A stretch of 64,000 nt of DNA from Squalus acanthias (Eukaryota): the NCBI GenBank assembly GCA_030390025.1, contig CM059431.1, positions 97,466,001 through 97,530,000 on the forward strand. Reading direction: 5' to 3'. The notes beneath the pieces were generated by a model that searched no databases, was not told the origin of the DNA, and was given only the letters and a program-made list of their open reading frames with translations. Position numbers and translations under genes: made by a program. Within the stretch, counting starts at the first letter, position 1. Each line of letters begins with the position of its first letter. Below, one piece after another: positions 1-35,858 of the stretch.

Positions 1-2236
1 CGAGGGCCGTGTCGACCACGGTAGAGGGGAATCCTCGGTTGAGGAAAAAGGAAGACATGTCGGAAGCACTGGTATGGAAGGTGGCATCATCAGAGCAGAT
101 GCGGCGGAGACGGAGAAACTGGGAGAATGGAATAGAGTCCTTACAGGAGGCGGGGTGGGAGGAAGTGTAGTCCAGGTAGCTGTGGGAGTCGGTGGGCTTG
201 TAGTGAATGTTAGTCAATAACCTATCCCCAGAGATGGAGATGGAGAAGTCGAGGAAGGGAAGAGAAGAGTCGGAGATGGACCATGTGAAGGTGAGGGAAG
301 GGTGGAAATTGGAAGCATAGTGAATGAAATGTTCTAGTTCAGGGCGAGAGCAGGAGACGGCACCGATACAGTCATCAATGTACCGGAAAAAGAGGTGAGG
401 GAGGGGACCCGAGTAGGACTGGAACAAAGAGTGTTCCACATATCCCACGAAAAGGCAGGCATAGCTAGGACCCATGCGGGTACCCATAGCAACACCTTTA
501 ATTTGGAGGAAATGGGTAGAGTCAAAGGAGAAGTTGTTCAATGTGAGAACAAGTTCAGCCAGGCGGAGGAGGGTGGTGGTGGATGGGGACTGGTTGGGCC
601 TCTGTTCAAGGAAGAAGCGGAGCGCCCTCAGGCCATCCTGGTGGGGAATGGAGGTGTAGAGGGATTGTACGTCCATAGTGAAGAGGAGACGGTTGGGGCC
701 GGGAAACTGGAAACTGTTAAAATGGCGGAGGGCATCGGAAGAGTCGCGGATGTAGGTGGGAAGAGACTGGACAAGGGGAGAAAAAATAGAGTCGAGATAG
801 GAAGAGATAAGTTCCGTGGGGCAAGAACAGGCTGAAACGATGGGTCTACCGGGGCAGTCCTGTTTGTGGATCTTGGGAAGGAGGTAGAAGCGGGCTGTGC
901 GGGGTTGGGGAACTATGAGGTTGGCGGCCGTGGGGGGAAGATCTCCAGAGGAGATGAGGTCAGTGACAGTCTTGGACACGGTGGCTTGATGTTCGGTAGT
1001 GGGGTCATGGTCCAGGTGGAGGTAGGAGGAGGTGTCAGAGAGTTGGCGTTCAACTTCCGCTAGGTAGAGGTCGGTTCGCCAAACAACAACAGCGCCACCC
1101 TTGTCAGCAGGTTTAATGACAATGTCAGGGTTGGATCGGAGAGAATGGAGTGCTGCAAGTTCAGAGGGAGGTAGGTTGGAGTGAGTGAGGGGAGCAGAGA
1201 AATTGAGCTGGCCGATGTCACGGCGGCAGTTAGCAATGAAAAGATCAAGAGAGGGTAAGAGGCCAGAGGGAGGGGTCCAGGTGGAACGAGAATTCTGAAA
1301 GCGGGAGAAAGGGTCAGCCGTGCGGGGGGAAGACTCCTGGCCAGAGAAGTGGGCACGGAGACGGAGGCGGCGGAAAAAGAGCTCAGCATCGTGCCGAGCT
1401 CGAAATTCATTGAGATGGGGGCGTAAGGGGATGAAGCTCAGGCCTTTGCTGAGGACTGATCGTTCGGAGTCAGAGAGGGGAAGGTCAGAGGGGATAGTGA
1501 AAACGCGGCAGGGGGTGAGATTGGGAGAAGGGGGGTCAGAGGAAAGTGAAGGGGAAGAAGGTTCCGGAGGGGCTTTAGTGTCCAAGAGTTGTTGAAGCTT
1601 GCGATCCTTGACATCGGAAAGGAAGAAGAAAAGTTTTTTGTTGAAGCGTCGGATGAGTCTAAGGATGAAATGGAACTGTGGACCCGGACAGCTTTGAGAT
1701 AGAGTGCGTCGGTGCTGCTGAAGAGAGATGTCGAGAGTGTTCATGTGGCGCCGCATGGCATTGAGCGTGGATCTCAAGATGCGGCGAGAGCAGTAGTTCG
1801 AGGAACGATGAATATCTTGGAGATATTTGTAATCCTGGGTGGATCCGAAACACGAAGGGTGGAAGTTTAGTTGGAATCCACGTGGGATAAGTCGGAACCG
1901 GAGACAGTTGCTGAGGAAAGTAATGTGGCTGTGAAACCGAGTCTTGGCAGATACCTGATCAAACACGAGAAGGGAAACTGAAATCAATGAAGATGAACAA
2001 GGTTGAAGAGCCAAACGGAAATCCCGTCGAAGAGAAGAGCAGAACTTCTTCAAGGTAGGCATTCCAAGAAGAGAGGTGGCAGTGAACCAAACACTAATAC
2101 GATAGCAAAATACTGCAGATGCTGGAAATCCGAAATAACAACAGAAAACGCTGGAAAAACTCAGCAGGCCAGGCAGCATCCGTGGAGAGAGAAAGAGAGT
2201 TGACGTTTCAGGTCGATGACCTTTCATCAGAACTGG
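1..2236 (-). mobile_element. Penelope-like retroelement, 5' two-thirds (pLTR, N-terminal domain, RT); continues beyond the window start; frame disrupted
   Basis: Minus strand from ATG at 2062 reads MPTLKKFC...HITFLSNCLRFRLIPRGFQL, the PLE N-terminal motif. LQIKGVAMGT lies near 480-510 and FRYIDD near 371-389. The pLTR with a hammerhead core is at 2100-2236. Confidence 0.9.
2198..2234 (-). ncRNA. Minimal type I hammerhead ribozyme in the Penelope pLTR
   Basis: Minus strand reads AGTT-CTGATGA-A-AGGTC(ATC)GACCT-GAAAC-GTC-AACT. This gives the CUGANGA and GAAA boxes, stem II AGGTC/GACCT, stem I AGTT/AACT and a palindromic minimal stem III. Confidence 0.8.
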
Positions 2237-3001
2237 GATTAAAGTTAACTACCTTAACGAGCCCACCAGAATTAAACAAAGCACTGGGAAGATTTGGCGG
2301 GCAAATAAGGAACAATCGAAGAGTATAACTTGAGACCTGTGCTGGAACAAGCCAGAGTTCTACAGAGGAGAGTTCCACAGAGATGAGACTGCAGAGACGA
2401 GACTGGCAGTTTTGCAGCCTAGCAGTTTAAAACAAGCTGTTCAAGTCACACAGACAGGCCACAAGCAGGACAGCTGAAGCACAGGAGTTCTCCAGTACAC
2501 AGTTCAACAGAAACAAGACCGTTCAACAAAGAAAGCCAGCAGCGCCAGAAACAGACCGACACGCAAGAAACCAGAGCAATGGTTCCAGTGACCATCAAAC
2601 ACCTCGAGGCACAAGGGCCTTATGAAACTTTTTACTTAAAAGGACTTTAAACCATATCTCAACTGTCAAAGGATTCATTTGGTGAGCCTTATCCCTGGTC
2701 CTCAAGAGTCTAACTTAGCTAGTAAAGTGGGGTTGGGAGGGGTGAGGTATTGTTCTACTGTCATTTCCCTCGTTTGTACCGAAGTTAAGATTGACATGTT
2801 ATGTTTCATCTCTGTTAAATAAACATTGGTTTTCCTCGCACCAATCCACGGGTCTGTTCGTTTGTCCTTATCGCCGCTCGATAAGTCCTGGGCTCAGAAC
2901 TAGGAAGGGGATAGCGATTCGCAACCGCACAGCGGGCAGGACAGTCCAGGAAAACATAACTGGCTGACCTACAAATAAGCCCGAGACAAAAACCCCTTAC
3001 A
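2237..3001 (+). mobile_element. LTR-like segment (5'-truncated by the Penelope element) that cuts off env of element A
   Basis: Non-coding, TATA-like sequence near 2323, AATAAA near 2818, ends in CCTTACA. It does not resemble the LTR of element A. Confidence 0.5.
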
Positions 3002-4794
3002 AGTGATAAACTGGGATGGGAGTTTCTCTCTTCGGAACTATGGGAAAGTATAAGACTAATCCCAACATAGTCAAGTTTGATCCTGATTTACATTCATGTC
3101 TTACAGGGTAGACTTGTATTAGCCCCCTGAATTCACACGTGGTGATATTACTATGATATTTGACCAGAGCATTTAGATACCGATCCTCTATCCAAGAGGG
3201 AATTTTACCTTCTTCAACCAATCTTAAATTCTCTCGTGCTTGTTCTACTAACCAGGATCCGTACATTATGCACACGTCGTTCTGTGCTGCCTCGGTAGAA
3301 GCATTTCTATCTTCTCTGAATATTGCATTTATTGTTGTGGTGAGAGATTCCAATTGTGTAACTACATCTTGTAAATGTACTTCATGATTTGATCTTCACT
3401 AAGTTCTCGATCCTGATTAGTATTTGTTTCTTGTAAAATTTTCTTGAGCTGTGCTCTCGTATCTTTAATTTGTTTATCCAAAGCGGCTAAATCTAAGCTA
3501 CTTACAAGTGATGTTCCTGTATTAAAGACGGTTGCTGCATCATTTACTAAGCTTCACCTCCCTCTACCATGAGTTTCTCTCCCCTTCGGGTTCCCATAGA
3601 TCTGGTCCTCGTGACAAGACCCATAACTATTACCATTTCTAGCCCAGAAATCATCAACAACTTGTTGCAACAGGTTTCCAAACAAGAGGGTGGTTTTTGG
3701 CTTACAAAATTCCGGTAACCCCATATTTGTTAAATTTATTATGACAGGCACTACCTCGTGATGGATCTTATGGTACAGGATCGTGCGTGTAGGAATAACG
3801 ACTAAACCGTTAGTCGGTCCCTCAGTATGGGTAGGGCAGGGGCTGTCTGGAGAGTGGAGGTTTTCAGGGACACTATCTTTGGGTTTAATTTGTACCTTCA
3901 GTCCTTGTGGATATATGGTATTGATACATTTATTTTCGTATACTGTCTCACATACATATATCCCCGCATCCTTTTGCCAAAAATTTCTCCAACAGAAAAT
4001 TTACATAAGAACATCAGACGTAGGAGCAGGTGTTGGTCATTTGGCCCCTCGAGCCTGCTCTGCCATTCAACAAGATCATGGCTGATCTGATCTTGGCCTC
4101 AACTCCACTTCCCAGCCCGCTTCCCATAACCCTTGACTCCCTTACCTTTCAAAAATCTGTCTATCTCCACCTTGAATATATTCAATGACCCAGCCTCCAC
4201 AGCTCTCTGGGGAAGAGAATTCCAAAGATTCACGACCCTCTGAGAGAAGAAATTCCTCCTCATTTCCGATATAAAAGGGTGTCCCCTTATTCTGAAATTA
4301 TGCCTCCTAGTTCTAGATTCCCCCACGAGGGGAAACATCCTCTCTGCATCTACCCTGTCAAGCCCCTCCAGAATCTTATATGTTTCAATAAGATCCCATC
4401 TCATTTGTTTCATTTCTCTCATGTAAGTGACCACCCCGGTTGTATTAAAATTAGTTTGTGTTTTATTGCTCACATCCTTTCTTAGGAATGTCTTATTGTT
4501 CGATTCACATTCGAGACAGAATCCATTATCTTCTTTCACATATATTACAGTAGCCTGTATGGACCCATTATAACATGCGTTGGCTTCCTCATCTGAAGTC
4601 TGATTACTGTTGGTACTGGTGTCGTGTTGATTCGTGCTCCATCCTCCATCTTTACTGATTATGTGAATTCTTTCGGATGGACCCTCTGTCCCACCCCTTT
4701 GAGTTATTGGACTGGGACCTATGTCGAATCCTTGACTGCAGATTACTACAGTGAATAGCTCAACCACTACTATCAACGACCACCACTTCTTCAT
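3002..4794 (-). pseudogene. env: env of element A: signal peptide, Ig-like segment, furin site, fusion-peptide-like segment and heptad region; interrupted and 3'-truncated
   Basis: Starts MKKWWSLIVVVELFTVVICSQG. RGR*SLVNDAATVFNTGTSLVSSLDL has a TGA that is plausibly CGA by CpG decay. CIMYGSWLVEQARENL...IPSWI aligns with env of element B. Confidence 0.85.
4003..4402 (-). mobile_element. CR1 LINE 3' fragment inserted in env A
   Basis: Encodes MRWDLIETYKIL...FFSQRVVNLWNSLP plus the CR1 3' tail. Flanked by ATTT at 3999-4002 and 4403-4406. Confidence 0.9.
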
Positions 4795-7700
4795 TGCACC
4801 TGCGGTACCGGAGTCTCTTCAGCTTCCTCTTCTTCTTCATCGAGGATCCAAGGCGTACTTCTGACCATGCACATGATGGTCCCAGTCTTCTTAGGCTGCT
4901 TCACCTGTGCTTCTGTAGGTCTAAGCTTCATTTGGTTAATATGAAACCATTTGACTTTTTTAGGCAATTGAACTGCATACACCATAGGACTTGCTTTATC
5001 TACTATACTGTACGGTCCCTTATACAGAGGTTCAAAAACTCCTGCTCTGGCGTAGTTTCTTACCATCACTCGGTCTCTGATGTCCCACTCCTGTGGTTTG
5101 GACGGAATCAACAGGAGCTTTAGATCTTGCCAATTTCAGGTGGCAGCATCCAAGTGAAGCTTTATCAGGGTTTCCCATAAATCTTTCAGGAACTTATCCC
5201 TGGTTACTTCCTTGATTTGCTTTTCGGTGAGACTGGGAAATAACAGATGGGCAGGGATCCGCATAGGTCTCCCTGTCACCAATTCATGTGGAGAATATCC
5301 CGTTTCCTTCGATTCCTTACTCCGGATTCCCATGAGGACCAGGGGAAGCACTTCATCCCATTTAGCATGCTGCTCATTCACTTCTTTTCTAAGGGCTAGT
5401 TTCAAGGTGCGGTTCATCCTCTCTACAATCCCAGATGACTGTGGGTTATGGGCCACAAGCCATTTCCTTTCAATTCCCAACATCTTCAGAGTGGCCTGCA
5501 TTACCTTCCCCGTGAAATGGCTTCCCTGATCTGATTCGACCACCTTCAGTAGTCCCCATCTGGAGAATACTTCCCTGACTAATGTTTTTGCTGTTCCCAA
5601 GGCTGTTGCTGATCTACAAGGGAAGGCCTCCACCCACTTGGTGAAATTGTCTACCAGGACTAAACAATATTTATTTCCCTTCTTGGTGGAGGGTAAGGGT
5701 CTGATAAAATCTATCTGACCGCACTGCCACGGCCCTTCAACACGCCGTGTGTGTCCCAGAGGAGCCTTTCTCTTGTGTGGATCCGGGTTGTTAGCGGCGC
5801 ATATTAGACATCTCTTACAAAAGCTCTCCCCATCCTCTCTGAGGTGCGGCCACCATCCCACTTCGTCTATTCTTTTCCAAGTGGTCTTGGGTCCTGGGTG
5901 TCCTGCCCCTGGGCCTCCATGCGCTAACTGAATAAACTCCTCCTGATACCCTTCCGGCACTATCCACTTGTCTTCTTTAAACAGCATTCCCTCCTTAATT
6001 TCTACCTCTCTGGCTCTGTACGGTCCTTCTACCTCTGACCCTTCCTCTTTCTTTTTTATGACTGCCTTCAGTAGCACATCTTTCAACTGAATAGTTTTAA
6101 GGTCGGGAGGGAGAGGCCCTGTATTTGAGGTATGAGTTGTGACATTCACTATCCCCGATTGATACGGGTTCCAGAAAACTCCTTTCTCTGCACCCTTCCT
6201 GGCCAATTCATCGGCCTTCTGATTACCCTCCCATCGAGTTTGCGTTTTTGAATGGGCTTTTACCTTATGGATGTAATAGGCGTGGCCTGTATCCTATACG
6301 GACGCTAAAATGGTGGCTAACATAGGAGCCGTGGTTAAGGGTTTTCTGTCTGCTGATGTGAACCCCCTTCTCGCTCAGATGGCTCGATGCTCAGTACAAG
6401 AATTACAGATGAACATCGACTCGGAACAGACGGTATACGGAGGGAGAAACTCAACAGGATGCGTGACCACATAGGTCACTGCGGCCAGTTCCGCCTGCTG
6501 GGCACTCAGTGGTGGGAAGGGATATTGCTACTTCAGTTCTCCTCGGTGGATCAGAAAGCCCGCAGCCCGTTTTCCGTTTTCCCCCCTCTACAAAGCTGGA
6601 GCCGTCGACATAAATATCTCGTCCCTCTGGATGGATCCCTGCTCTAAATCCTCCCTCAGTTTCCCAGACACCCTCTATAGTACACGTGTGGGGCTCTCCC
6701 GGGTAGTCGAGGTTAACCGTCAGCTTTGGATGAGTTATTCTTTTTGCCTCGATGCCCCTCTCTTGTAATAACAAAGTCCATCTCGCTATCCCAGCACTAG
6801 ATACCGTCCCTTCTTTGATTCTTCCGCCCAGCAGCAAGCGGATCGGAGTGTGGTGGGTCAGTAACACGAGAGCCTGGGTGCTGGTAAACACCGAAAAATG
6901 CTTCACCGCCCAGAAAGTCGGCAGCAGGTGGCGTTCGCAGCGGGAGAAACCCTTTTCCGCCCCTGGGTGCGATGCCACTGGTCGCAAGGGGCTGTTCGGT
7001 TCCTGCAAAAGGACTGCACTTAAACTGGCACCAGTGGCTGCGGCTTCCGAATAGAAGCCCTTGTTAGGGTCCACTGCTCCCAGAGCTGGGGTGGTCTGTA
7101 AGTCCATTTTCCGTTTAACAAACACCTCTTTGCACTTATCGTCCCATCCCCACTTCACTCCTTTCCTCAATAATCTCAGCAGGGGAGCCACAGTCGCAGC
7201 GTACTCATCTATGAACTCTCGACAGTATCCTGTCAGTCCCAAGAATGATCTGAGGGCTGCCTTTGAACTGCCTTTCTCTTTGCTTCATCTATTGCTCGCT
7301 CCCCAGGTCGAATAGTTAGTCCCAAGAACTGAACCTCCTTCTGTGCCTTCTTAGGATTTACTTTAAAGCCTGCTGTTCGGAGTAGCTCCAATAACTCCCC
7401 GTGCTCCTTCTCGCTCTCAGAGAGCAACAGCAAATCGTTTATGTACTGTATCAGTCGATCTGGATGACTGAAGTCCCGTAGACAATTCGCTATGCTCTGG
7501 TGGAAGATTGAGGGGCTATTATGGAACCCTTGTGGGAGACAGCTCCATGTGTATTGCTGTCCCTTAAAGGTGAAGGTGAATTTGTACTGATCCTCTGGAT
7601 GCAGAGGAATTGACCAGAAACCATTTGAAATGTCTAAAACTGTGAATACCCTGGCAGACCTCAGGGTGTTGCTAGTCAGATCCCCCACTGCAGCCACAGT

Positions 7701-9397
7701 AGGTGCACAAGCAGGGATATTCTTGTCCAGGACTCTATAGCCAATGGTCATTCGCCATGAACCGCCCGGTTTCCTAACCGGCCAAATAGGTGAATTCACA
7801 TCTGTAGCCAAGGGTCTCAAGACTCCCCGATCCAGCAAAGATGTCACCGCCTTTTCCAAGTCCCTCTCTGCCTCCTTTGGGAAGGTATATTGTTTCTGAG
7901 GTCGGGACATAGGCTCTCCTCCTATTCTAACCTGCACTCCCGTCACCCGTCCACAATCATGCTTATGAGTGGCGAAAGCTTCCCTGTTCTCTTCCACTAT
8001 CCGCCTATAACTTTCTGGGGTTCTACTCTTCAAAGTCCGCAGGTCATAGGGTCCCGCTGAGGTTGCCACCCACGCCTCTCCATGGTGAGGTGGGATAACC
8101 AATATTTCATCAGTTTTGTCCACTCCACCCCACAAACAGTTATTGTGCATATCTACAACTATATCGTGTGCCAGTAGCCAATCTGATCCCACTACTACCA
8201 TTCCTGGTTGATCCCAACGCATTAAAATACACGTCCACTTGGTTTGCAGTGACCCGACCTTAAATTTTAAGGGGGAGAAATTCAGTATCGCCCCATTTGG
8301 GGCGCAATTATCGGCCGGGTGAAAAGATTAGCGCCTGGCGCTAATTATCGCCACTGACTGGAAACTTCACTTTTAACGCCCCGGGAGGTGATTGGAGCGC
8401 TAAATCAGGCGCTGCACACCTGTCTTAAGGCGCAAAGGCCGAGGAGTGAGGCGCTAACTCAGAGCGCTGGCGAAGCTCATGTAATGTCAGTCAGCAATGG
8501 AACACACACACAATGGCACGGGCCAGTTCTTAAAGGGGATGGATAATCTTGCTTTCCATCCACATCCTGCTCATTGCAGCCTTGAATCTCGGCCTGGAGA
8601 GACCTGCACATCAAATCTGCTGGAAAGAACAATGGAGAGTACCAGGCAAAGAGCTCAGAGTGCAGCCCCCACAGTCTCTTCTAAATCGATACAAGGAATG
8701 GCAAATCAAAATGAACCTGCAAAGTGCTGCTCAGTACCCAAAACTCCTTCACACAACGTTGAATCTCTCCAGAAGTCTCTCTGACTCTCTCTCAGAATGC
8801 ATAGTTCAAAAATGGCACCAACAATAAAAGGCAGGAAGCGGTCACCTTTAAATAGCGCTCCCCCTTTCCCTTCATGACTGCAGAACGCTCCCCTCAACCT
8901 GTCGTTGCTAGCGTCAGGCGGTAAGGCAGGGGGCGCCACTCAATTTCCGCTCCGGGGCGTTACCGAGGCGTTGCGCACTCGACTGACGTCATGATCTGCC
9001 GGCGCAGGAGATCGTGGCGGTAGTGTTTAGCGCCGCCGCAAAATGTCTAGTTAATTTCGCGAGCGGTGCAAACTTCGCCGCGCCTGGGCGCTAGATGCTT
9101 TGCGCCCCATTAGCGCCCTCTTAAGGCGCTAACGGGAGGCGCAACCAACTGAATTTTTCCCCCTAAGGGTTTGGATACTGCCCCAGCCACTGATTTGCCT
9201 GAAAATCCTTTAAGTACATATAGTTTTCCGGTAGACCATGGGGAAGTGTTGGGAGCAACTGAGTTGACTACTGTACTTGAAGCTCCAGTATCTATTAAGT
9301 AATCCCCTTTCTTCCCCTCTACAACTACATTTACACATGGTCTATTGTACTCGTCGTACCGGAGTGGACACAGGTACTCGGGCTGGGCGCGGCCCCA
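4791..9397 (-). pseudogene. pol: pro-pol of element A (protease, RT, tether RNase H, RNase H, integrase), frameshifted
   Basis: Protease LIDTGASSTV; RT LPQGFHNSPSIF and YIND; tether CERHLL..FWAVKHF; second RNase H IYVDGS...KVKAH...GNQKADELA. Integrase shows H..H..CxxC, IDFI, SDQGSHF, PQSSGIVERMN and GPY. Confidence 0.92.
8271..9163. mobile_element. Non-autonomous PIF/Harbinger-type DNA transposon (MITE) inserted in the protease of element A
   Basis: TIRs GGGGGAGAAATTCAG / CTGAATTTTTCCCCC with a TAA target duplication. Removing it restores the protease frame SKPLKFKVGSL. Confidence 0.88.
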
Positions 9398-11053
9398 TCA
9401 CGCTTGTTCATTGAGCGGCCCCTCACAAGTGGACCTTGCCTTCCTGGTGGGCCTTTTGTTCTTTCATAAATTTGGCTACACATTCCACTAGTTCCTTATA
9501 ACTAGGGCCACTTGGCTCGGAGATGTTCACCCGTTTACTTCCTCCTTCTCGCTCCCTTTTAGGCCTCCTACATTCTCTTACAAAATGGCCCCTTCCTCTA
9601 CAATTATGACAAACCCTTTCATTCATCCCCAGGGCAGGCTTGAAGGGTTTACCCTCCTGCTGCCATTTCCTGGGGGTTCCCCCTTTCATTTCGCACACCT
9701 TCCCTTTGGGCTGACCCACTTCCCGCTTCTCATCTTGACAGGACTCGAATAACCTAGTCATTTTCCGTAACACCTTCTCCTCAGTGTGCTCATCATTGGG
9801 ATCGGACCAGTTTTCCATATGAGCCCTTATATCAGACAAACTATGGCCAGTCAGGGTCCTTAACCGATGATTCAATCCCTTTCCTTCTCATTTTTCTCTC
9901 AGGATCTCTCCCCCTCAGGTTTCATTGTACACTACCCAGAGTCCATCAGCAAACTGCCTCGGCCATTCTTTCGGGCCTTGGGTGGTCAATTCTATCTTTT
10001 GAAAAGGATTTCCTACTTCGGCCCCCAATAATTTCCGTAATTCGCCCACCAATTCCCTCCAGTCTGATTTGCCATTCCTATGGGCCTTCGGGAGTCCCCC
10101 ATAAACGTCAGGTTCTAACGTGAACAATAACAGTCTTTTCTTTTCTTCCTTACTGCAATTTGCCATCGAGGCATGTTGCTCTACTATCATTAGATGGTTT
10201 TCTATCTCTCCTCCCCTACTCAATTTTCCTATTTCCTTCGCTAAACTTTTAAGATCGGTTAGGGAGTACTCCTGATGGTACTGCCTTTCTTCCTCCAGAC
10301 CTCCGTCCCCGGCTGTGTCATACTTATACTTAGTGGTACGGAGGGACACATTCTCCCATCCTCCCTTTCCGTGGTTGCATACGCCAGGGGTCTCCAATGT
10401 TCCCCAGGCGGTCCATAGTCTAACTCCTCTTCCTCATCGCTTACACACTCCAGTGCCATCGCACAGACTATCCCCTTTTTGGCAGACAGTTTCCCCTCTA
10501 ATTCCTTAATTCTTCTTTCACATTCTACATGACTTTCTTTCCCCTTCTTTTCTAGAGCAGACTGGTGGGCCACTCTCACTGCTGCTTTCAAGTCCTCATT
10601 CTGCCTTTCGGCCTTGTCTGCTCTCTCCTTTTGTCTGGACACTTCCTGTTCCCATCTATCACTCAGCTTCTGCCCTTCTAGGTATAGAATTTCAGTGAGC
10701 TGCCGCTCCCTTTCACGCTCCCAGTTTTCTCTTTCCTCACTCAGTTCTTTTAACAATCTGTCGACCACCGCCTCCCGATCGCTAGCCCTTGCATTGTTTT
10801 CCTCGATCTTTTTCCTTAACCGGATCTTTTCACATTCATAATTTTTAAATTGTCTCTGGTATGCCATGAGCCAGACAGCTTTTAGTAAACCAAAGCAGCA
10901 GGTAGTACCCTGCGGCCACTGTTCAGCTTCACAGACTGGATCTTCCCCGTCTACGATCACCCGAACCCAACCTTCTTTCAAAAGTAGCTTCCCTGCTATA
11001 TACTTAGTTATTAGTTCATCCATAGCTTTCTTCTTTGGATTTGGGTGTTTCAT
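9398..11053 (-). pseudogene. gag: gag of element A (three frame-shifted pieces)
   Basis: ORFs 10259-11053 (long coiled coil), 9915-10397 (capsid-like) and 9423-9875 (zinc knuckle CHNCRGRGHFVREC), lying between the PBS and protease. Confidence 0.85.
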
Positions 11054-11074
11054 CTTATTTTCCCTTTACGCAGG

Positions 11075-12489: not shown

Positions 12490-15103
12490 TTAAAATTCCC
12501 TCAACCTCTCCTCGTATGTCCACCCCCTCATCCCCGGAATTAACCGAGTGAACCTTCTTTGTACTGCCTCGAGAGCAAGTATGTCTTTTCTTAAGTATGG
12601 ACACCAAAACTGTATGCAGTACTCCAGGTGCGGTCTCACCAATACTCTATACAACTGCAGCAATACCTCCCTGTTTTTATAATCTATCCCCCTAGCAATA
12701 AAAGCCAACATTCCATTGGCTTTCTTGATCACCTGCTGCACCTGCATACTAACTTTTTGATTTTCTTGCACCAAGACCCCCAGATCCCTTTGTACTGCAG
12801 TACTTTCCAGTTTCTCGCCATTAAGATAATAACTTGCTCTCTGATTTTTCCTGCCAAAGTGCATAACCTCACATTTTCCAATACTGTATTGCATCTGCCA
12901 AATCTCTGCCCACTCACCCAGCCTGTCTATATCCCCTTGTAGGTTTTTTATGTCCTCCTCACTCTCTACTTTCCCTCCCATCTTTGTATCATCTGCAAAC
13001 TTTGATATGTTACACTCGGTCCCCTCCTCCAAATCGTTAATATAGATTGTAAAGAGTTGGGGACCCAGCACCGACCCCTGCGGAACACCACTGGCTACTG
13101 GTTGCCAGTCCGAGAATGAACCATTTATCCCAACTCTCTGCTTCCTGTTAGATAACCAATCCTCCACCCATGCCAGAATATTACCCCCAATCCAGTGATT
13201 TTTTATCTTGAGTAATAATCTTTTATGTGACACCTTGTCGAATGCCTTCTGGAAGTCTAAATACACTATGTCCACTGGTTCCCCTTTATCCACCCTGTAC
13301 ATTATATCCTCAAAGAACTCGAGCAAATTTGTTAGACATGACTTCCCCTTCATAAAGCCATGCTGACTTTGTCCTATTAAATTATGTTTATCTAAATGTT
13401 CCGTTACTGTCTCCTTAATAATAGACTCCAAAATTTTACCCACCACAGATGTTAGGCTAACTGGTCTATAATTTCCAGCCTTCTGCCTACAACCCTTTTT
13501 AAATAAGGGTGTTACATTAGCAGTTTTCCAATCTGCCGGGACCTTTGCTGAGTTCAGGGAGTTTTGGAAAATTATTACCAAAGCATCCACAATTCCTACT
13601 GCCACTTCCCTCAAGACACTAGGATGTAAGCCATCAGGTCCAGGGGATTTATCCGCCTTGAGTCCCATTATTTTACTGAGTACCAATTCCTTAGTGATTT
13701 TAATCGTATTTAGCTCCTCCCCCACTAGAGCCCCCTGTTTGTCCAGTGTTGGGATATTCTTAGTGTCCTCTACCGTAAAGACTGAAACAAAATATTTGTT
13801 CAGCATTTTTGCCATCTCCATGTTTCCCACCATTAATTTCCCGGTCTCATCCTCTAAGGGACCTACGTTTGCCTTAACCACCCTTTTTCTTTTTATATAA
13901 CTATAGAAACTCTTGCTATCTGTTTTTATATTTTTTGCTAATTTATTTTCATAGTCTATTTTCCCTTTCTTAATCAATCCTTTAGTTACTTTTTGTTGTC
14001 TTTTGAAGACTTCCCAATCTTCTATCCTCCCACTAACTTTGGATACCTTATATGTCCTTGTTTTTAGTTGGATACTTTCTTTAATTTCTTTACTTAACCA
14101 TGGATGGCTGTCATTTCTTTTACACCCTTTTTTCCTCAGTGGAATATATTTATTTTGAAAGTTGTAAAATAACTCCTTGAATGAACACCACTGCTCATGT
14201 ACCGTCTTAACCTTTAATCTATTTTCCCAGTCCACTTTAATCAATTCTGCTCTCATGCCATCATAGTCTCCTTTATTCAAGCTCAGTATGCTTGTATGAG
14301 AACCAACCTTCTCACCCTCTAATTGGATATGGAATTCAACCATGTTATGGTCACTCATTCCAAGGGGATCCTTAACTAGGACATTATTAATTAATCCAGA
14401 CTCATTACACAGTACCAGGTCCAAGGTTGCTTGCCCCCTTGTAGGATCAGTTACATACTGCTCAAGAAATCCATCCCTAAGACACTCAATAAACTCTTCC
14501 TCAAGGCTGCCCTGCCCAATTTGATTTGTCCAGTTAATATGATAGTTAAAATCCCCCATAATTATAGCTGTTCCCTTATTACATGCCCCAACTATTTCCT
14601 GATTAATACTTCTTCCAACAGAGTTGCAACTATTAGGAGACCTATATACTACGCCCACCAGTGTTTTTTTCCCCTTATTATTCCTTATCTCTACCCAAAC
14701 TGTTTCATTATCCTGATCTTTTGACCCAATATCATTTCTCTGTATTACAGTGATTCCTTCCTTTATTAACATAGCCACCTCCCCCCCCTCCCCTTCCTTC
14801 CTGCCTGTCCTTCCTGATTGTTAAATACCCTGGCATATTTAATTCCCAGACGTTGTCACCCTGCAGCCATGTTTCTGTAATGGCCACAAGATCATATCCA
14901 TACATAGTTATTTGTGCCGTTAACTCATCAATTTTGTTACGAATGCTACGTGCATTCAGATAAAGAACGTTCAAATGTGTTTTGCGACACTTACTTCCTG
15001 CTTTTTCCTTATTTAACACTTTACCTTTTACTCCATACCTTCTGTCCCTTCCTGACATGCTTTCCTCTGTCTCCCTGCTCAGGTTCCCAACCCCCTGCCA
15101 CAT
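12490..15103 (-). pseudogene. CR1 ORF2 (APE endonuclease and RT), one frameshift near 14780
   Basis: [44 protein letters not shown] and FADD; 762 aa remain open. Confidence 0.93.
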
Positions 15104-16042
15104 TAGTTTAAATCCTCCCCAACAGCACTAGCAAACACTCCCCCTAGGACAGCGGTCCCAGCCCTGCCCAGGTGCAGACCGTCCGGTTTGTACTGGTCCC
15201 ACCTCCCCCAGAACCGGTTCCAATGTCCCAGGAATTTGAATCCCTCCCCCTTGCACCATTCCTCTAGCCACGTAGTCATTTGAAATATCCTCCTATTTCT
15301 ACTCTGACTAGCACGTGGCACTGGTAGCAATCCTGAGATTACTACCTTTGAGGTCCTATTTTTTAATTTACCTCCTAACTCCCTATATTCTGCTTTTAGG
15401 ACCTCATCCCCTTTTTTACCTATATCGTTGGTGCCTATGTGCACCACGACAGCTGGCTGTTCGCCCTCCCCCTCCAAAATGTTCTGTAGCCGCTCCGAGA
15501 CGTCCTTGACCCTTGCACCAGGGAGGCAACACACCATCCTGGAGTCTCGGTTGCGGCCGCAGAAACGCCTACCTATTCCCCTTACAATTGAGTCCCCTAT
15601 CACTATAGCTCTTCCACTCTTTTTCCTCCCAGCCTGTGCAGCAGAGCCGCCCATGGTGCCAGGAAGTTGGCTGCTGCTGCCTTCCCCTAAGTCATCCCCC
15701 CCAACAGTATCCAAAGCGGTATATCTGTTTGAGAGGGGGATGGCCACAGGGGACCCCTGCACTACCTGCCTGCACCTCCTACTCTACCTGGTGGTCACCC
15801 ATTCCCTGTACACCCTTCACCTGCGGTGTGACCAACTCACTAAACGTGCTATCCACGAGGTTCTCAGCATCGCGAGTGCTCCAATATGCATCCAGCCGCA
15901 GCTCCAGCGCCGCAATGCAGGCTGTCAGTAGCTGCAGCTGGATACACGTCCCGCACACATGGTCGTCAGGGACACCGGAAGGGTCCCTGATTTCCCACAT
16001 AGAGCAGGAGGAGCACAACACGGGGCTGGGCTGTCCTGCCAT
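15103..16042 (-). pseudogene. CR1 ORF1 (zinc finger/leucine zipper plus SGNH esterase), frameshift near 15770
   Basis: CSSC...CGTC followed by a heptad segment; GDS, GTND and DGLH esterase blocks. Confidence 0.9.
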
Positions 16043-16327: not shown

Positions 16328-16679
16328 ACCTCTGCAAACAAAAGCCCGCGAAAGTGAGTTTAGATACTCACCGGGCCTCGGCTCTCTCCGCCCCCGACAC
16401 CAGCCTCTGTAAACAAAAGCCCGCGAAAGTGAGTTTAGATACTCACCGGGCCTCGGCTCTCTCTGCTCCCGACAGCAGCCTCTGCAAACAAAAGCCCGCG
16501 AAAGTGAGTTTAGATACTCACCGGGCCTCGGCTCTCTCCGCCCCCGACACCAGCCTCTGTAAACAAAAGCCCGCGAAAGTGAGTTTAGATACTCACCGGG
16601 CCTCGGCTCTCTCTGCTCCCGACAGCAGCCTCTGCAAACAAAAGCCCGCGAAAGTGAGTTTAGATACTCACTGGGCCTC
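16328..16679. repeat. 75-bp tandem repeat (about 4.7 units, alternating A/B variants) in the CR1 5' UTR
   Basis: AAAGCCCGCG recurs at 16341, 16416, 16491, 16566 and 16641. Confidence 0.95.
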
Positions 16680-28455: not shown

Positions 28456-29678
28456 TGTTGTGGGATTTCTCTCTGCCCCAAAGCAGATGGAGACGAGCGT
28501 GTCCTGGTTCCCAGTGATCTTTATTCAAGCTCGTGCAGGGAGAGGCCCTCTCAGTCTGGGCTGAGATGGGAGACGAATTTTTACATTCGAGCAGTTGGCT
28601 TATATACAATCTTACATCTTGTTTCCTTCACATCTTCGGGACTTGGCCAATTAATTGTCCAAGTCATGTACACTTAATCACATCTCCACAAAACACATCG
28701 GGGAAGAAATTCGGTTGCTTTGCGCCTCACGTTAGTGCCCTCTTGGGCGCTAACGGGGCGCAAAGCAACTAGCGCCCGGGCGCGGCGCCGCCAATGCCTC
28801 CCGTGAAATTCAGCGGGAGATTAGCGGTGGCGGTAACCGTCAGCACCCCATGGTGCTGCGCCACAGGCAATGACGTCATCGCCGTGCACAGCTCCCCGCT
28901 CGCGCCCCGGCCGCAATCTTCGGTAGTGCCCCCTGACTTACCACCGGACGCTATGTCCAACGGTGTCAGATGGGCCTACCTGCGGCCGGGGCAGCGTAAT
29001 TAAAGGCGAGGTGCCGGGCGGCCATTTTTGTTGCTGGCTGCTTGCCAGCACCTGCCTCCGTTGCCGTCCCTGACCTCCTGAGCACCCCCCCCCCCACCCC
29101 CGGCGGAGTGCCAGCTGTGCTCCATGAGCCCAGCACTTCTCCTGAGTGCCGAGCTCTTTTGCCGGCACTCCGATCCCCGGTGGCCCAGCTGGGCCCCGGG
29201 TCGCACTGCGCAAGGCCCCTCCCCTTTAAGAAGGGGAGGAAGGCCTGCAGTACCGCGGCGCAATGTGCACCCTAAGAGGGAGGCGGGGCGCTTCCAGTAG
29301 CGCCCCACTTCCCTCTTGGGGCGCTACCGATGAATTTCGGCCGCGGGGCGCTAATTTTTTTGCGACGCTAAAAGTAGCGCCCCAGCGAAGTTAGCGCCCC
29401 AGAGGGGGCGCGACTCAATTTTTCCCCCATCTTGTTTATCTCATTTGCCCTGTTTCCACATCTGCCATTGTTCTATCCAATTTACGTACACTTAACCACA
29501 TCTTCGCAAATCACATCTTGGCGGCCCATTGTTCAATGTATGGCCTCCTTGCCTTCTTTTACTCCCCCAATCATCGTGTAATATGCTTTTTCCAACTGTC
29601 CTTGTTCTGCCAGACTTCTCCTTTATTACATCAGCCAGCTAGTCAGTTAAGCCGCTAATCTAACTTTTAATTCCTTCA
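28456..29678 (-). repeat. 3' LTR of element B (contains a MITE)
   Basis: Matches 35369-35858 once 28700-29431 is removed. Confidence 0.95.
28700..29428. mobile_element. Harbinger-type MITE in the 3' LTR of element B
   Basis: Termini GGGGAAGAAATT / AATTTTTCCCCC with an ATC TSD. The empty site CACATCTTG is visible in the other LTR. Confidence 0.9.
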
Positions 29679-29879: not shown

Positions 29880-32800
29880 GTCATTTACATCGAGTACAAT
29901 ATTCAAACATAAGTATGGTGACAATTAGCAACTGCACCACCACCAATACATGAGATGTAATTCTGATCCAGGGGTGAATGTCCACCCTAATACCCCAGTC
30001 CCAAAGTGTCTGCCAGCATGAGGCATCTTCCAGCTTGGCCTCCACATCCTTCCCCAGTTGTTTGACCTCCTGCTCAATTCGGTGATACTGCTTAATTATC
30101 GCCCCGGCCTCTTTCCTCAGTTCCAGTAGGTGTTCTGGTAGTTTCGGGATGTCATTCCCCTCAGGGAGTACATTATTCGAGCATGCTGTCCTTTAGGTCC
30201 TCAGTTGGACTCGCCCGTTCCTCGTGGGATGACCATCGGTAGGTTATGGTTGCATGTCCGATCGTTGTTGGGGCCTGGGGGCAGAAGCAGAAACTTGAGC
30301 TGGTCACTGGGCACCGGATGTTACCATACTGGTATTGGGATTCACTGGTGGTCACACAGTATTCTCCTTTTCCCCGGTGTGCTGCTTGCATTGACTCATG
30401 GTGGGCACTGGAAATTTCAAGGGTACAATTTAGGGTGGTGTTGAAGCCGTGAAAGGATATTTACTAGTCCTAGCCCCTTTAGGGCTACCCCGGATCAGGC
30501 GTATATCTCAGACGTTCACTTTCAACTAAAGTTTGAGGTAGCCGAATCCTAAAGACTCTTAATTGGGTCTGAAGGTCCGGGCTATCTCTTCCTAAAGCAA
30601 AGGAACAACCCGAGAATGTTACCGTCCTCCAGATAGTGCTTCTAATAAGTTTAGCTAGACTGTAACATCCCGGATATTATGAGGGTTCGGAAACCTCCCT
30701 CAGAATTCTGTAACTCTTCACCAAAGAGTGTACAGAGATTTAGTTTGCGAGTTTTTGATACAGAAGACTTATGTGAGACAATTCTAAAAATATATAGAGA
30801 TTTATTAAAGAACCGACATGCAATTTACAGTTGGTGAATCAGTCAATCGCAACATTAACAATTCTAAAAAGAGAAAAAATACCATCTTATTATTAACAGG
30901 GAATCTTACTTTTAAATCTTAACTTCGCTACAGTATTACTGTTCTTAAAGTTTTCTATACAGGATATCCATCAATATCAAATACCTTTGATCCCCGAGGT
31001 ACAAAGAGTGGTAGACCACAGAGCTGCCTCTGTAGCCAAGAATCGCTTTGCTCGATTAAAGCGAGTCTGATATCCCATTTGAAACTTCAATATTTATACC
31101 CTTTTCCAGTGGTATTTCCTTTAAAGTTTCTGCTGATGCAAGTTAATTATCCCTATTCATCTTTCTGCCGACCTCTGCAATTCTTAATGCTACATCAGCC
31201 AGAATCTTGTCTCATCTCCAGGTGTTCTAGGGTCACCATATAAAACGGTGTGAAAGGCAGGCGTTCCTTATTTTGTCATCTTTACAAGGGCAGATGTTCC
31301 TTATCTTATGTGCCATATTTACGAAGTTTAAATTAGAACACCTTATCCAGGGTGAACCATTGTTTTTGTTCCCAAAGGTCAGCCTGTCAGAGCCGTGCAC
31401 CTTCAGTTTCAATAAGGTTATTTATTCAGGGTCAACAACTGTCTTATCTCAATAGCCAGAATTCTTTCATAGCTATTTCATAGTTAGGTTTCTAAATTTC
31501 CAAACCCAGTTTGTCATGTTTTAATAAGGCCAGAATTCTTTCATAAGATAGTGTGTTTTTCTGAATAGGTTATATGGCTTATTCCTTCACAGCTTCACAT
31601 GGCTCCTGGCCCTGTCCCCACAGGATGTGGGCAGACTACGTTACTCCCCCTTTCTCTGCATCTCTCTAACAAGATCCCCGTCAAGAAGGAACCTTTCTGG
31701 GTTGCATAAGTGGGTGCGTGGTGGTACCTGAGCCAATTGCCATCTCTTATGATCCTGACATTCTCTACCTCGTAGAGGGGCTTGGATACCCTTTTCTGCA
31801 GACTGGGTATAGCTATCAGCCTCAGGTGAGTGGTAACACAATGTGTAGTTGTCGGGTAGACCTTTATAAGTCCTCGTAGGGTGCACAAAGAGCAACTGCC
31901 GCTCTCTGGCGCCCAGTCTTGCAGTGCGCTATCCATAATCCAATCCGGCACATCTCTATTGTGGAGCTGTGCTAGATTATGTCGCACCTCCCCCACTAGC
32001 CATGCCCCATAGGCCACGCACATTCGTTCCCTAGAGGCCTGATTGGTTACGTTATGCAGGGTGGCGGTGACGTGGTTAACTGTATGGGCATGGCTTTTCC
32101 AAAACTTGCACTTACTCTAATAGGGTTTTAGCCAAGTCTTTTCCAGTCTGTCCCTGATGTCCCTCCAAATTATTTGCCTTTAACATGAGGTCCCTTAGTT
32201 TGGATGTTAAATGATTCACCTTGCTATCGATTTCTGCTATATCCAGGGAATTAACTGTGGATGCCCCTGCACTGTAAGCAGTGGCTATGTCATTTACCAG
32301 GTTCCTCTTGCGGCGAGATAGGCTCGACCGCACGCGTCCCCCAGAGGCCCGGAGGGCATCAGTAACTATCATGTCGAGGAGCCGATGGTAAAACGACCTT
32401 GTACGCCATTCGCAACATTTGGGTAACCCCATCTGGCTAATATTGAGGACAACCAAACCTATCTCATGGTGTACATTCTCAAATAAGCACCTATCAGAAT
32501 CTCGGATCACGAGCCCCCCTTTGGGTCCCGAGCTATGCTGCGGACACCTCAAGGGTTCCTCCGTAGTCAAAGTGGTGGGCTTCAGGGCTCCTGTTACTGG
32601 GGTGGTCGGTGTGGTGGTGGGAGTATCCCGGGGGTTCAGCTTCCAACACCAATCATCAGAGTTGGTGCACTTGGAGGTTGGGCATAGTTCCCACCCTCCT
32701 TCTTCCTGCTGGGGTACCCCGGACATCTGAGTGAAATCTCTCCCACATCTTACTTGCATAGTTTCTCCCTGTACGCATGTTAATGTATCATCACTCTTCT

Positions 32801-33080
32801 TCCCGAAGCATACCGTGCTCATGTTTGTCCATTTAACAGCCATCCCCGTGTTACCCCTATCCCCTGTATCACCTGGCTTCTTGTCAAATATGCTTACACC
32901 CGTTAACCCGGAGCTACAATTTAAATACACTGTTTTATCAACTGTGACAGTTAACACCACACGTTCCCGATCGCAACTGATGTCGCTTGAGTTCTTGTAA
33001 TACAGGCCTCGTTGCTCCCTTCGGTCGACTGATGTGGCTCCTTCTGTGGTTGCCGTGGCCAGGCATATCAGTAAGGTCAT
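29880..33080 (-). pseudogene. env: env of element B, split by a solo LTR
   Basis: Signal-like start MTLLICLATATTEG, a Thr/Pro-rich stalk, RRKR/NLVNDIATAYSAGASTVNSLDI, a heptad region, and Cys-rich NVVCP...GFN...NC...YCVTT...FCFCP. A TM-like HVLVVVQLLIVTILMF lies near 29900-29955. Confidence 0.88.
30449..31591 (-). mobile_element. Probable solo LTR inserted in env B
   Basis: Interrupts env between ..EPC and GFN.., with inverted termini GTGAA/TTCAC, minus-strand AATAAA near 30800 and TATA near 31095. TSD unclear. Confidence 0.65.
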
Positions 33081-33179
33081 CCGTATTTGAGTCCTGTAGA
33101 GGGAGATAAACAGTGGACGCCGGTCGTCACCGGTTTAGTCCTTATTATTTACTGTGCTTTCGAATTTCTTAAGTTGCAT

Positions 33180-35368: not shown

Positions 35369-35858
35369 TGTTGTTGGATTTCTCTCTGCCCAAAGCAGAT
35401 GGAGACGAGCGTGTACTGGTTCCAAGCAATCTTTATTCAAGCTCGTGCAGGGAGAGGCCCTCTCAGTCTGAGCTGAGACGGGAGTCTAATTTTTACATTC
35501 GAGCAGTTGGCTTATATACAATCTTACATCTTGTTTCCTTCACATCTTCGGGACTTGGCCAATTAATTGTCCAAGTCACGTACACTTAATCACATCTCCA
35601 CAAAACACATCTTGTTTATCTCATTTGCCCTGTTTCCACATCTGCCATTGTTCTATCCAATTTACGTACACTTAACCTCATCTTCGCACATCACATCTTG
35701 GCGGCCCATTGTTCAATGTATGGCCTCTTTGCCTTCTTTTACTCCCCCAATCATCGTGTAATATGCTTTTACCAACAGTCTTTGTTCTGCCAGACTTCTC
35801 CTTTATTACATCAGCCAACTCGTCAGTTAAGCCGCTAATCTAACTTTTAACCCCTTCA
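35369..35858 (-). repeat. 5' LTR of element B
   Basis: TGAAGG...ACAACA on minus, AATAAA present, duplicated at 28456-29678. Confidence 0.95.

Follow-up and report, generated by a model that had tools for sequence, protein, structure and literature searches.

Immunoglobulin (Ig)-like receptor-binding heads on retroviral envelope (Env) proteins are known only for the gamma type, and the origin of such a head from a host gene has been shown in one preprint. In the available portion of that work, the gamma-type receptor-binding domain (RBD) termed RBD-C is described as a modified Ig variable (IgV)-like domain at the N-terminus, and one canonical IgV head of a gamma-type Env is reported to have been taken from host SIRP genes (bioRxiv 10.1101/2024.03.17.585361). 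F-type Envs, such as those of lokiretroviruses and errantivirus/gypsy elements and the F protein of baculoviruses, are described without an Ig-like head in the available parts of three accounts (PMC7947760, PMC9040795, PMC13524379), the last of which assigns four conserved domains to errantivirus F. Here we analyze a 64,000-nucleotide stretch of DNA from the shark Squalus acanthias (assembly GCA_030390025.1, contig CM059431.1, positions 97,466,001 to 97,530,000 of the forward strand), hereafter the window, in whose coordinates all positions are given. It contains a retrovirus-like element, element A, whose env gene (env A) encodes a domain of about 100 residues that is also found in Env relatives from sharks and skates and is interrupted by a long interspersed nuclear element (LINE). 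This domain very likely has an Ig-like fold, and the explanation that best accounts for the evidence as a whole, which we consider probable, is that of an Ig-like receptor-binding head on a class I Env. The general arrangement of an Ig-like RBD on Env is already known; what is probably new is its occurrence with canonical Ig hallmarks, in elasmobranch hosts and on a non-gamma, probably F-type, fusion subunit. An earlier reading of this DNA from its letters alone (the sequence-only reading) had stated that it knew of no description of the arrangement. That was too strong, given the IgV-like heads described for gamma-type Env in the available text of the same preprint (bioRxiv 10.1101/2024.03.17.585361).

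Env A starts with an ATG at 4794 on the minus strand and is open in two pieces, a first of 130 codons that ends at 4405 and a second of 148 codons that starts at 4000, with both pieces meeting the break on codon boundaries. The sequence-only reading had proposed that a LINE splits env at this point and hides the domain, and that the frame becomes continuous once the repeat and one ATTT copy are removed. All its coordinates check out, and the observation is confirmed because insertion-free copies exist in nature, so that no mending of the sequence is needed. In three of four public sequencing runs, contigs carry the joint of the empty site, which passes from 3998 directly to 4403 with 404 letters skipped and four letters common to both sides (one contig in run X1, one in X2 and two in X15). 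The shorter side of the joint measures 28 letters in both X1 and X2 as against 69 in X15, and only the X15 joint is therefore solid. The fourth run, X18, shows no 3998 to 4403 joint among its contigs; one of them, of 947 letters, reaches into both flanks and has 15 letters where the window has 4003-4421.

The domain in env A is genuine and conserved, and its two parts are colinear across the break. When the two pieces are joined with an X at the break and compared with a family-domain profile built without env A, they score 24.0 bits in a single stretch that runs across the break, a value that none of 1000 shuffled sequences reached (best shuffle 11.1). The first relatives came from a phmmer search with the second env A piece, run exhaustively over 1.84 billion representatives at E<=0.001, which returned eight proteins, six of them shark or skate Env relatives; P0009-P0013 emerged from two further searches, one with a profile and one with a region. 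The named sources of the relatives are the skate Rhinoraja longicauda, the sawshark Pristiophorus japonicus, the brownbanded bamboo shark Chiloscyllium punctatum and the whale shark. The best phmmer match, P0001 (6e-24), was discarded as an artefact, being a 1325-residue tandem-repeat protein that was matched in 20 stretches. A word-index search of longer proteins with the second env piece gave 38 candidates, none of which scored, and none of the matches of the metagenome pattern scans (102 for P0012 and 50 for P0010) was confirmed. In the whale-shark protein P0013 the domain is joined to pol fragments that are 33-42% identical to the pol of element A, and the viral context thus recurs.

The core cysteines and the D-x-G-x-Y-x-C motif to which the sequence-only reading had pointed are kept in other members of the family. 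In an hmmalign alignment, all six env A cysteines share their columns with cysteines of P0010, P0012, P0003 and P0002, and the motif, present as DAGIYVC at 3950-3970 in env A, is retained in five of the six relatives that hold this part (P0010, P0012, P0003, P0002 and P0011), while P0007 retains just its G and C. It is the relatives that give the motif its weight: the six frames together contain a single D-x-G-x-Y-x-C against 0.34 expected from 100 shuffles of the window, and by itself the motif is not beyond chance. Among the contig rows listed for the four runs there is no difference within 3950-3970, which does not by itself establish conservation of the motif across genomic copies. The second half of the domain is about 40% identical to P0010 and P0003 (12 of 29-30 aligned residues). 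Strand B contains a C-L-x-C pair (env A residues 93-96, 4507-4518) that env A has in common with P0010, P0012, P0003, P0002 and P0013. Of the four conserved cysteines beyond the core pair, one belongs to this B-strand pair, one lies in strand E, one precedes strand A and one follows strand F.

Two of the deposited protein models in this set are chimeras. The sawshark model P0004, named 'Niban 1-like', combines the N-terminal half of an Env with other sequence, and the whale-shark model P0013 combines endogenous retroviral pol fragments with the Ig-like domain of an Env; both are annotation artefacts that mask viral genes.

As to the fold, every method that detected anything gives the Ig superfamily. 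B- and F-strand cysteines of Ig domains are about 50-70 residues apart, and in the colinear reading of env A the core cysteines (Cys 96 in the first piece, Cys 17 in the second) lie 51 residues apart, close to the spacing of about 50 that the sequence-only reading had noticed upstream of the motif; the two columns are also filled by cysteine in P0010, P0012, P0003, P0002 and P0007. Among Pfam families, Ig_3 is the best match of P0010 (E 0.0027, 18.6 bits, residues 80-162 on profile positions 2-74 of 78) and the sole match of both P0012 (E 0.0085, 17.0 bits) and P0002 (E 0.58, 11.1 bits). A profile of four relatives and the second half of env A, searched against PDB sequences at E<=10, matched 95 chains, and the best 60 of the 95 all belong to the Ig superfamily and align from the A' to the F strand, headed by OPCML (0.001), basigin (0.0036) and CD8 alpha (0.0045). 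Searched singly, the second env A piece found just two PDB matches, both of them V domains of antibody light chains, with alignments that extend from the F to the G strand at non-significant E-values of 0.61 and 1.3, and P0007 found nine weak ones, six of them antibody VH domains on residues 68-145.

An AlphaFold2 model of P0010 from an 11-row alignment has a mean predicted local distance difference test (pLDDT) score of 40, with values of 50-60 in six or seven strands within residues 86-165. Foldseek searches with it returned antibody or Ig-superfamily entries, judged by title, in 45 of the 46 rows listed, none at E<=0.001, and V-type Ig domains in 48 of the 50 rows listed for the representative set clustered at 40%, a set from which most antibody redundancy is stripped. 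The corresponding comparison with viral models was discarded, since root-mean-square deviations above 20 Å in most rows are meaningless for a model of such low confidence. The features of the ESM language model place the domain beside the V-set and I-set clusters (0.93, a lead only), and the UniRef name of the bamboo-shark relative P0007 is 'Ig-like domain-containing protein'. On the low-confidence P0010 model, the break lies just before residue 145, between model strands 137-141 and 144-151, and the insertion would accordingly fall in the turn between the predicted D and E strands.

A number of points weigh against this assignment. No Ig test reaches a formal threshold: the three Ig_3 scores (18.6, 17.0 and 11.1 bits) all stay under the cut-off of 30, no PDB profile match has an E-value below 0.001, and neither P0003, P0007 and P0013 nor either env A piece has a Pfam Ig match at E<=10. 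Of the Ig profile hit that the sequence-only reading had looked for, the top or only match to Ig_3 in three relatives stands, and a hit above the cut-off or in the env A pieces does not. The model is of low confidence and represents P0010 rather than env A. The first half of the env A domain, taken alone, scores only 7.6 bits against the relatives, a value that 4 of 1000 shuffles reach, even if the register is right; P0010 and P0012, at 67-68% identity, are not independent witnesses. Finally, the C-strand tryptophan, whose absence the sequence-only reading had itself conceded, is missing in env A, which reads F-L-R-K at the position of W-L-R-K or W-R-W in relatives (WWWLRK and IQWRW in the hmmalign alignment); its absence is a peculiarity of the lineage to which env A belongs.

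These points would also be compatible with a conserved Cys-rich beta domain of some other fold that mimics Ig motifs. No curated threshold is reached, the P0010 model is of low confidence, chance alone would yield 0.34 motifs per window, and an antibody-rich PDB favours Foldseek matches of the kind obtained. However, the V-type Ig domains still prevail (48 of 50 rows) in the 40%-clustered set, the Ig_3 alignments of three relatives coincide in place and span nearly the full profile, the best 60 of the 95 PDB profile matches are Ig-superfamily chains in register from A' to F, and P0007 received its name from an independent source. We therefore regard a different fold as very unlikely and an Ig-like fold as strongly favored.

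What this domain might do is suggested by its setting. Env A appears to be a member of an env family carried by endogenous retroviruses of elasmobranchs. The surface part of the proteins in this family would consist, in order, of a signal peptide, a short segment, the Ig-like domain, a Pro/Ser linker, a conserved block and a furin-type cleavage site. The domain would be V/I-set-like, with the canonical B-F cysteine pair, the D-x-G-x-Y-x-C motif and four further conserved cysteines, and the cleavage site would be followed by a long fusion subunit of class I that runs from a heptad-repeat region through a Cys-rich middle to a membrane anchor. As the sequence-only reading had held, the domain comes after the hydrophobic N-terminus and before the block shared with env B (31595-33134, minus strand). 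This block is 38% identical between env A and env B over 63 residues and 40-46% identical between env A and P0010, P0003 and P0007, and env B has two more features in common with env A, an RRKR site and the fusion part. The N-terminal module of env B does not match the domain profile, its score of 1.0 being equalled by 122 of 500 shuffles. Similarly, the sawshark protein P0005 has the block and the fusion part common to the family, and its N-terminal module scores -0.2 (equalled by 187 of 500 shuffles) and forms a different, Cys-rich head. Between P0010 and P0003, identity is 50% in the domain against 74% in the block. To judge by env B and P0005, heads look interchangeable within the env family.

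We propose that the domain, as a membrane-distal and lineage-specific module that changes faster than the conserved fusion machine which carries it, would act as a receptor-binding head in cis with the fusogen. We rate this role at somewhat better than even: receptor-binding heads typically form a tip of this kind, variable, specific to a lineage and glycosylated, while the class I machine below is conserved. The analogy is with RBD-C of murine leukaemia virus (MLV), feline leukaemia virus (FeLV) and HERV-Pb1, which, as far as the available description goes, would be alike in combining an N-terminal IgV-like domain, a Pro-rich linker and a conserved C-terminal part that contacts the fusion subunit, and has a head that is exchangeable between lineages (bioRxiv 10.1101/2024.03.17.585361). 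Compared by the available description, RBD-C differs in lacking the canonical B-F disulfide and in its expanded loops, whereas the shark domain keeps the B-F cysteines and the motif. Alternatively, the domain might be an immune decoy (a decoy module being one option named in the sequence-only reading) or shield, or a modulator of host Ig-superfamily signalling, with receptor contact made through the block or the fusion subunit. Four N-glycan sequons in the first half would fit a shielding surface, and new heads may at first just enhance cell binding according to the available part of the preprint (bioRxiv 10.1101/2024.03.17.585361). Yet no evidence here speaks for an immune function, and the position and variability of the domain fit a head domain equally, so that we hold this alternative to be unlikely and retain that of a receptor-binding head.

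The fusion subunit on which the head would sit is not of the gamma type. R-x-K/R-R cleavage-type sites occur at the matching place in P0003, P0004, P0005, P0007, P0008, P0009 and env B, and in the full-length relative P0007 (739 residues) the site is followed by 464 residues, with a hydrophobic 20-mer at about residue 687. The sequences read as a class I layout with signal peptide, cleavage site, heptad repeat, long ectodomain, second repeat and transmembrane (TM) anchor. Coiled-coil chains top the PDB search with the family profile over positions 225-286, and the full-length profile returned nothing from PDB except coiled-coil or helical noise (best E 0.012). The gamma-type hallmark C-x6-CC is absent from all 17 family sequences and pieces, and the family's sole conserved C-x-x-C, a motif that gamma-type Env has in the C-terminal part of its surface subunit, is located in strand B of the Ig-like domain. 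The gamma-type TM subunit has about 200 residues against about 460, or about twice as many, in the shark family.

In terms of ESM features, residues 270-739 of P0007 lie nearest to the F0 (PF00523) cluster (0.94, 198 shared features), with the Baculo_F and Gypsy clusters at 0.93. The architecture and this language-model lead make it probable, in our view, that the fusogen is of the F type found in paramyxoviruses and baculoviruses. Two results tell against it: P0007, P0003, P0005, env B and the env A pieces have no match to PF00523 at E<=10, and no F chain was retrieved in the sequence searches of PDB. The 'F-like' fusogen of the sequence-only reading thus stands with regard to class I architecture and the ESM lead and fails with regard to a match to PF00523 or to an F protein in PDB. 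Paramyxoviruses deploy F together with a separate attachment protein (HN, H or G). The shark Env may be like them in an F-type fusion machine, for which the ESM features provide a lead only, and would be unlike them in having attachment in cis, ahead of the cleavage site, rather than on a second protein.

With the F-type Envs of lokiretroviruses, errantivirus/gypsy elements and baculoviruses it shares the signal peptide, R-x-K-R cleavage, coiled coil and TM anchor set out in the available text of PMC7947760, and it is set apart from them by its Ig-like head. A similarity of lokiretroviruses to PF00523 at 2.2e-7 is reported in the available literature, unlike the shark family in which none was seen. 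The words immunoglobulin, shark, cartilaginous and Chondrichthyes are absent from the available text of PMC7947760, 'Immunoglobulin' from PMC4422223, 'Ig-like', 'IgV' and 'SIRP' from PMC13709493, and 'immunoglobulin' and 'Ig-like' from a preprint on a chondrichthyan syncytin-like Env (10.64898/2026.05.06.723177). We found no description of an Ig head on a long non-gamma Env in a search that had most subscription journals outside its reach.

The sequence-only reading had further called the domain 'captured'. This is not borne out: no host donor was found, in an exhaustive search that used the second half only and with elasmobranch proteomes not covered by a profile search. The teleost multi-Ig protein P0006 was considered as a donor and rejected, its E of 4e-8 arising from ten near-identical stretches with 5-9 bits each at best. 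A recent capture from a host Ig-superfamily gene, with the domain as a ligand mimic in parallel to the SIRP-like IgV head, would nevertheless have some attractions. The B-F cysteines and D-x-G-x-Y-x-C are kept, unlike in the modified IgV of MLV-type heads; this canonical state is that of the host-derived SIRP-like head in the available text (bioRxiv 10.1101/2024.03.17.585361); and the best PDB matches are cell-adhesion members of the superfamily, namely IgLON, basigin, JAM and CRTAM proteins. However, no host protein is close (best E 0.001), a region search with residues 70-190 of P0010 returned only Env relatives (3 of 11 candidates), and the sole host Ig protein returned by the exhaustive search, P0006, amounts to a sum of 5-9-bit repeats and scores -4.2 against the family profile. 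Moreover, the domain is common to shark and skate copies at 22-50% identity, which makes it old within the family. We accordingly judge a recent capture improbable; the sequences bear no sign of one, and an old capture may have taken place.

The SIRP-like heads on the alpha-like gamma-type Env of rhinoceros, pocket mouse, pangolin and rabbit endogenous retroviruses are, in the available description, alike in being canonical IgV domains with the B-F and an extra disulfide at the N-terminus of Env. They are unlike in their clear similarity to host SIRP and the conservation of ligand-contact residues, as against a shark domain with no donor found, and the shark family differs in its elasmobranch hosts and its other type of fusion subunit. 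More tentatively, and with appreciably less confidence than we place in the head itself, one might envisage an elasmobranch retrovirus lineage in which a paramyxovirus-type F fusogen has a canonical Ig V-like head of its own ahead of the cleavage site, so that a single protein would serve attachment as well as fusion. This head would be one of several unrelated, swappable modules, others being those of env B and the sawshark relative, and would derive originally from a host cell-adhesion gene. Overall, the sequence-only reading is partly supported in its interpretation.

The layout of env A and its surroundings is given in the table below. On element A, Pfam detects zf-CCHC, RVP, RVT_1 (1.2e-26), RT_RNaseH, Integrase_H2C2 and rve, and the PDB chains nearest to its reverse transcriptase (RT) are those of foamy virus (5e-40) and MLV (3.6e-35). 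A direct-repeat search of the element found no pair of long terminal repeats (LTRs), and its 3' end is lost.

Features of element A, its env gene and the inserted repeat (positions in the window)
Feature	Positions	Strand	Length	Basis
Element A, retrovirus-like: gag with zinc knuckle, protease, RT, RNase H, integrase, env	2997..11065	-		
Hydrophobic, signal-peptide-like N-terminus, about residues 1-21	4732..4794	-		ATG at 4794 and hydropathy
Segment from signal peptide to Ig-like domain, residues 22-70	4585..4731	-		translation
Ig-like domain, half 1, residues 71-130	4405..4584	-		in-register alignment to relatives; hmmalign
ATTT, copy of target-site duplication	4403..4406			
3' end of 5'-truncated LINE, C-terminal coding part and short 3' untranslated region, in env orientation	4003-4402	-	400 bp	
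ATTT, other copy of target-site duplication	3999..4002			
Ig-like domain, half 2 (E, F and G strands)	3881..4000	-		alignment to relatives; hmmalign
Pro/Ser-rich linker	3839..3880	-		translation
Block conserved in env family, C-P...G-P-x-N-G-L-V...N-L...L-P..C	3641..3838	-		identity to env B and relatives; invariant alignment columns
Place of the R-x-K/R-R cleavage site of relatives, ending in env A in an in-frame stop (3554-3556)	3554..3568	-		translation
Start of fusion subunit: small-residue segment, heptad-repeat region	3000..3553	-		tblastn of P0007, P0009 and P0004; open reading frames

The N-terminus of env A has a mean Kyte-Doolittle hydropathy of 2.2-2.3 in 15-residue windows from residues 4 and 7, and residues 22-70 contain a single sequon (N-x-S/T, residue 64). 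Within the domain, Cys 74, the B-strand C-L-E-C (residues 93-96) and the four N-glycan sequons belong to the first half, and Cys 3, 17 and 25 of the second piece belong to the second half. At the position that matches the linker, env B has a longer Pro/Thr-rich one. This copy of env is non-functional: in addition to the LINE insertion and the in-frame stop, it has a frame change near 3381-3383 in the fusion part, and its C-terminal third is gone, with tblastn leaving the last 280 or so residues of the full-length relative unmatched. The stop is private to the copy in element A, as every contig that overlies it in the four runs (1, 2, 4 and 1, respectively) has another letter there. A Tmpp129 match at 0.06 was dismissed as chance, and the env A and env B pieces are otherwise without a Pfam family. 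Just past the truncated end of env A, a 749-residue open frame (2-2248, minus strand) leaves the window at its start; with a weak RVT_1 match (1.7e-5), it represents another retroelement.

The repeat within env A has five further copies in the window at 70.6-81.6% identity. Its frame matches the C-terminal 97 residues of the open reading frame that follows the RT frame (58914-60240, RVT_1 6.8e-26) in another copy, and the repeat is therefore the 3' end of a 5'-truncated LINE. CR1, the clade given in the sequence-only reading, is plausible from the C-termini of CR1 elements, as a candidate label only. Contig depth reaches 10^5-10^7 over the repeat against 5-500 over env: this is a very abundant LINE sitting in a low-copy provirus family. 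Another LINE at 12493-15783 (minus strand; Exo_endo_phos_2 4.5e-10, RVT_1 1.4e-29) is of a different family from the insert in env A, and the open reading frame ahead of these domains encodes a GDSL-lipase/esterase-like domain (4.9e-13).

Elsewhere in the window, element B has an LTR-like pair of direct repeats (28456-29678 and 35369-35858) with 95.5-96% identity over 244 and 251 aligned letters, a kind of pair that element A lacks; its lower copy is interrupted between 28699 and 29428. A tandem array at 16329-16679 consists of 4.7 copies of a 75-bp unit with 94% matches. Neither the Rfam nor the tRNA scan of the window gave a hit.

If the proposed reading is true, these elasmobranch viruses would provide a second independent case of an Ig-like receptor-binding head on a retroviral Env, this time in the oldest jawed vertebrates, and one in which a head with the hallmarks of cellular Ig domains sits on a long, probably F-type, fusion protein. 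It would bear on the question of how F-type retroelement envelopes find their cells without a separate attachment protein, and on the freedom with which head modules may be exchanged on class I fusogens. It also flags shark and skate proteins that are currently annotated as 'uncharacterized' or 'Ig-like domain-containing' as viral envelopes.

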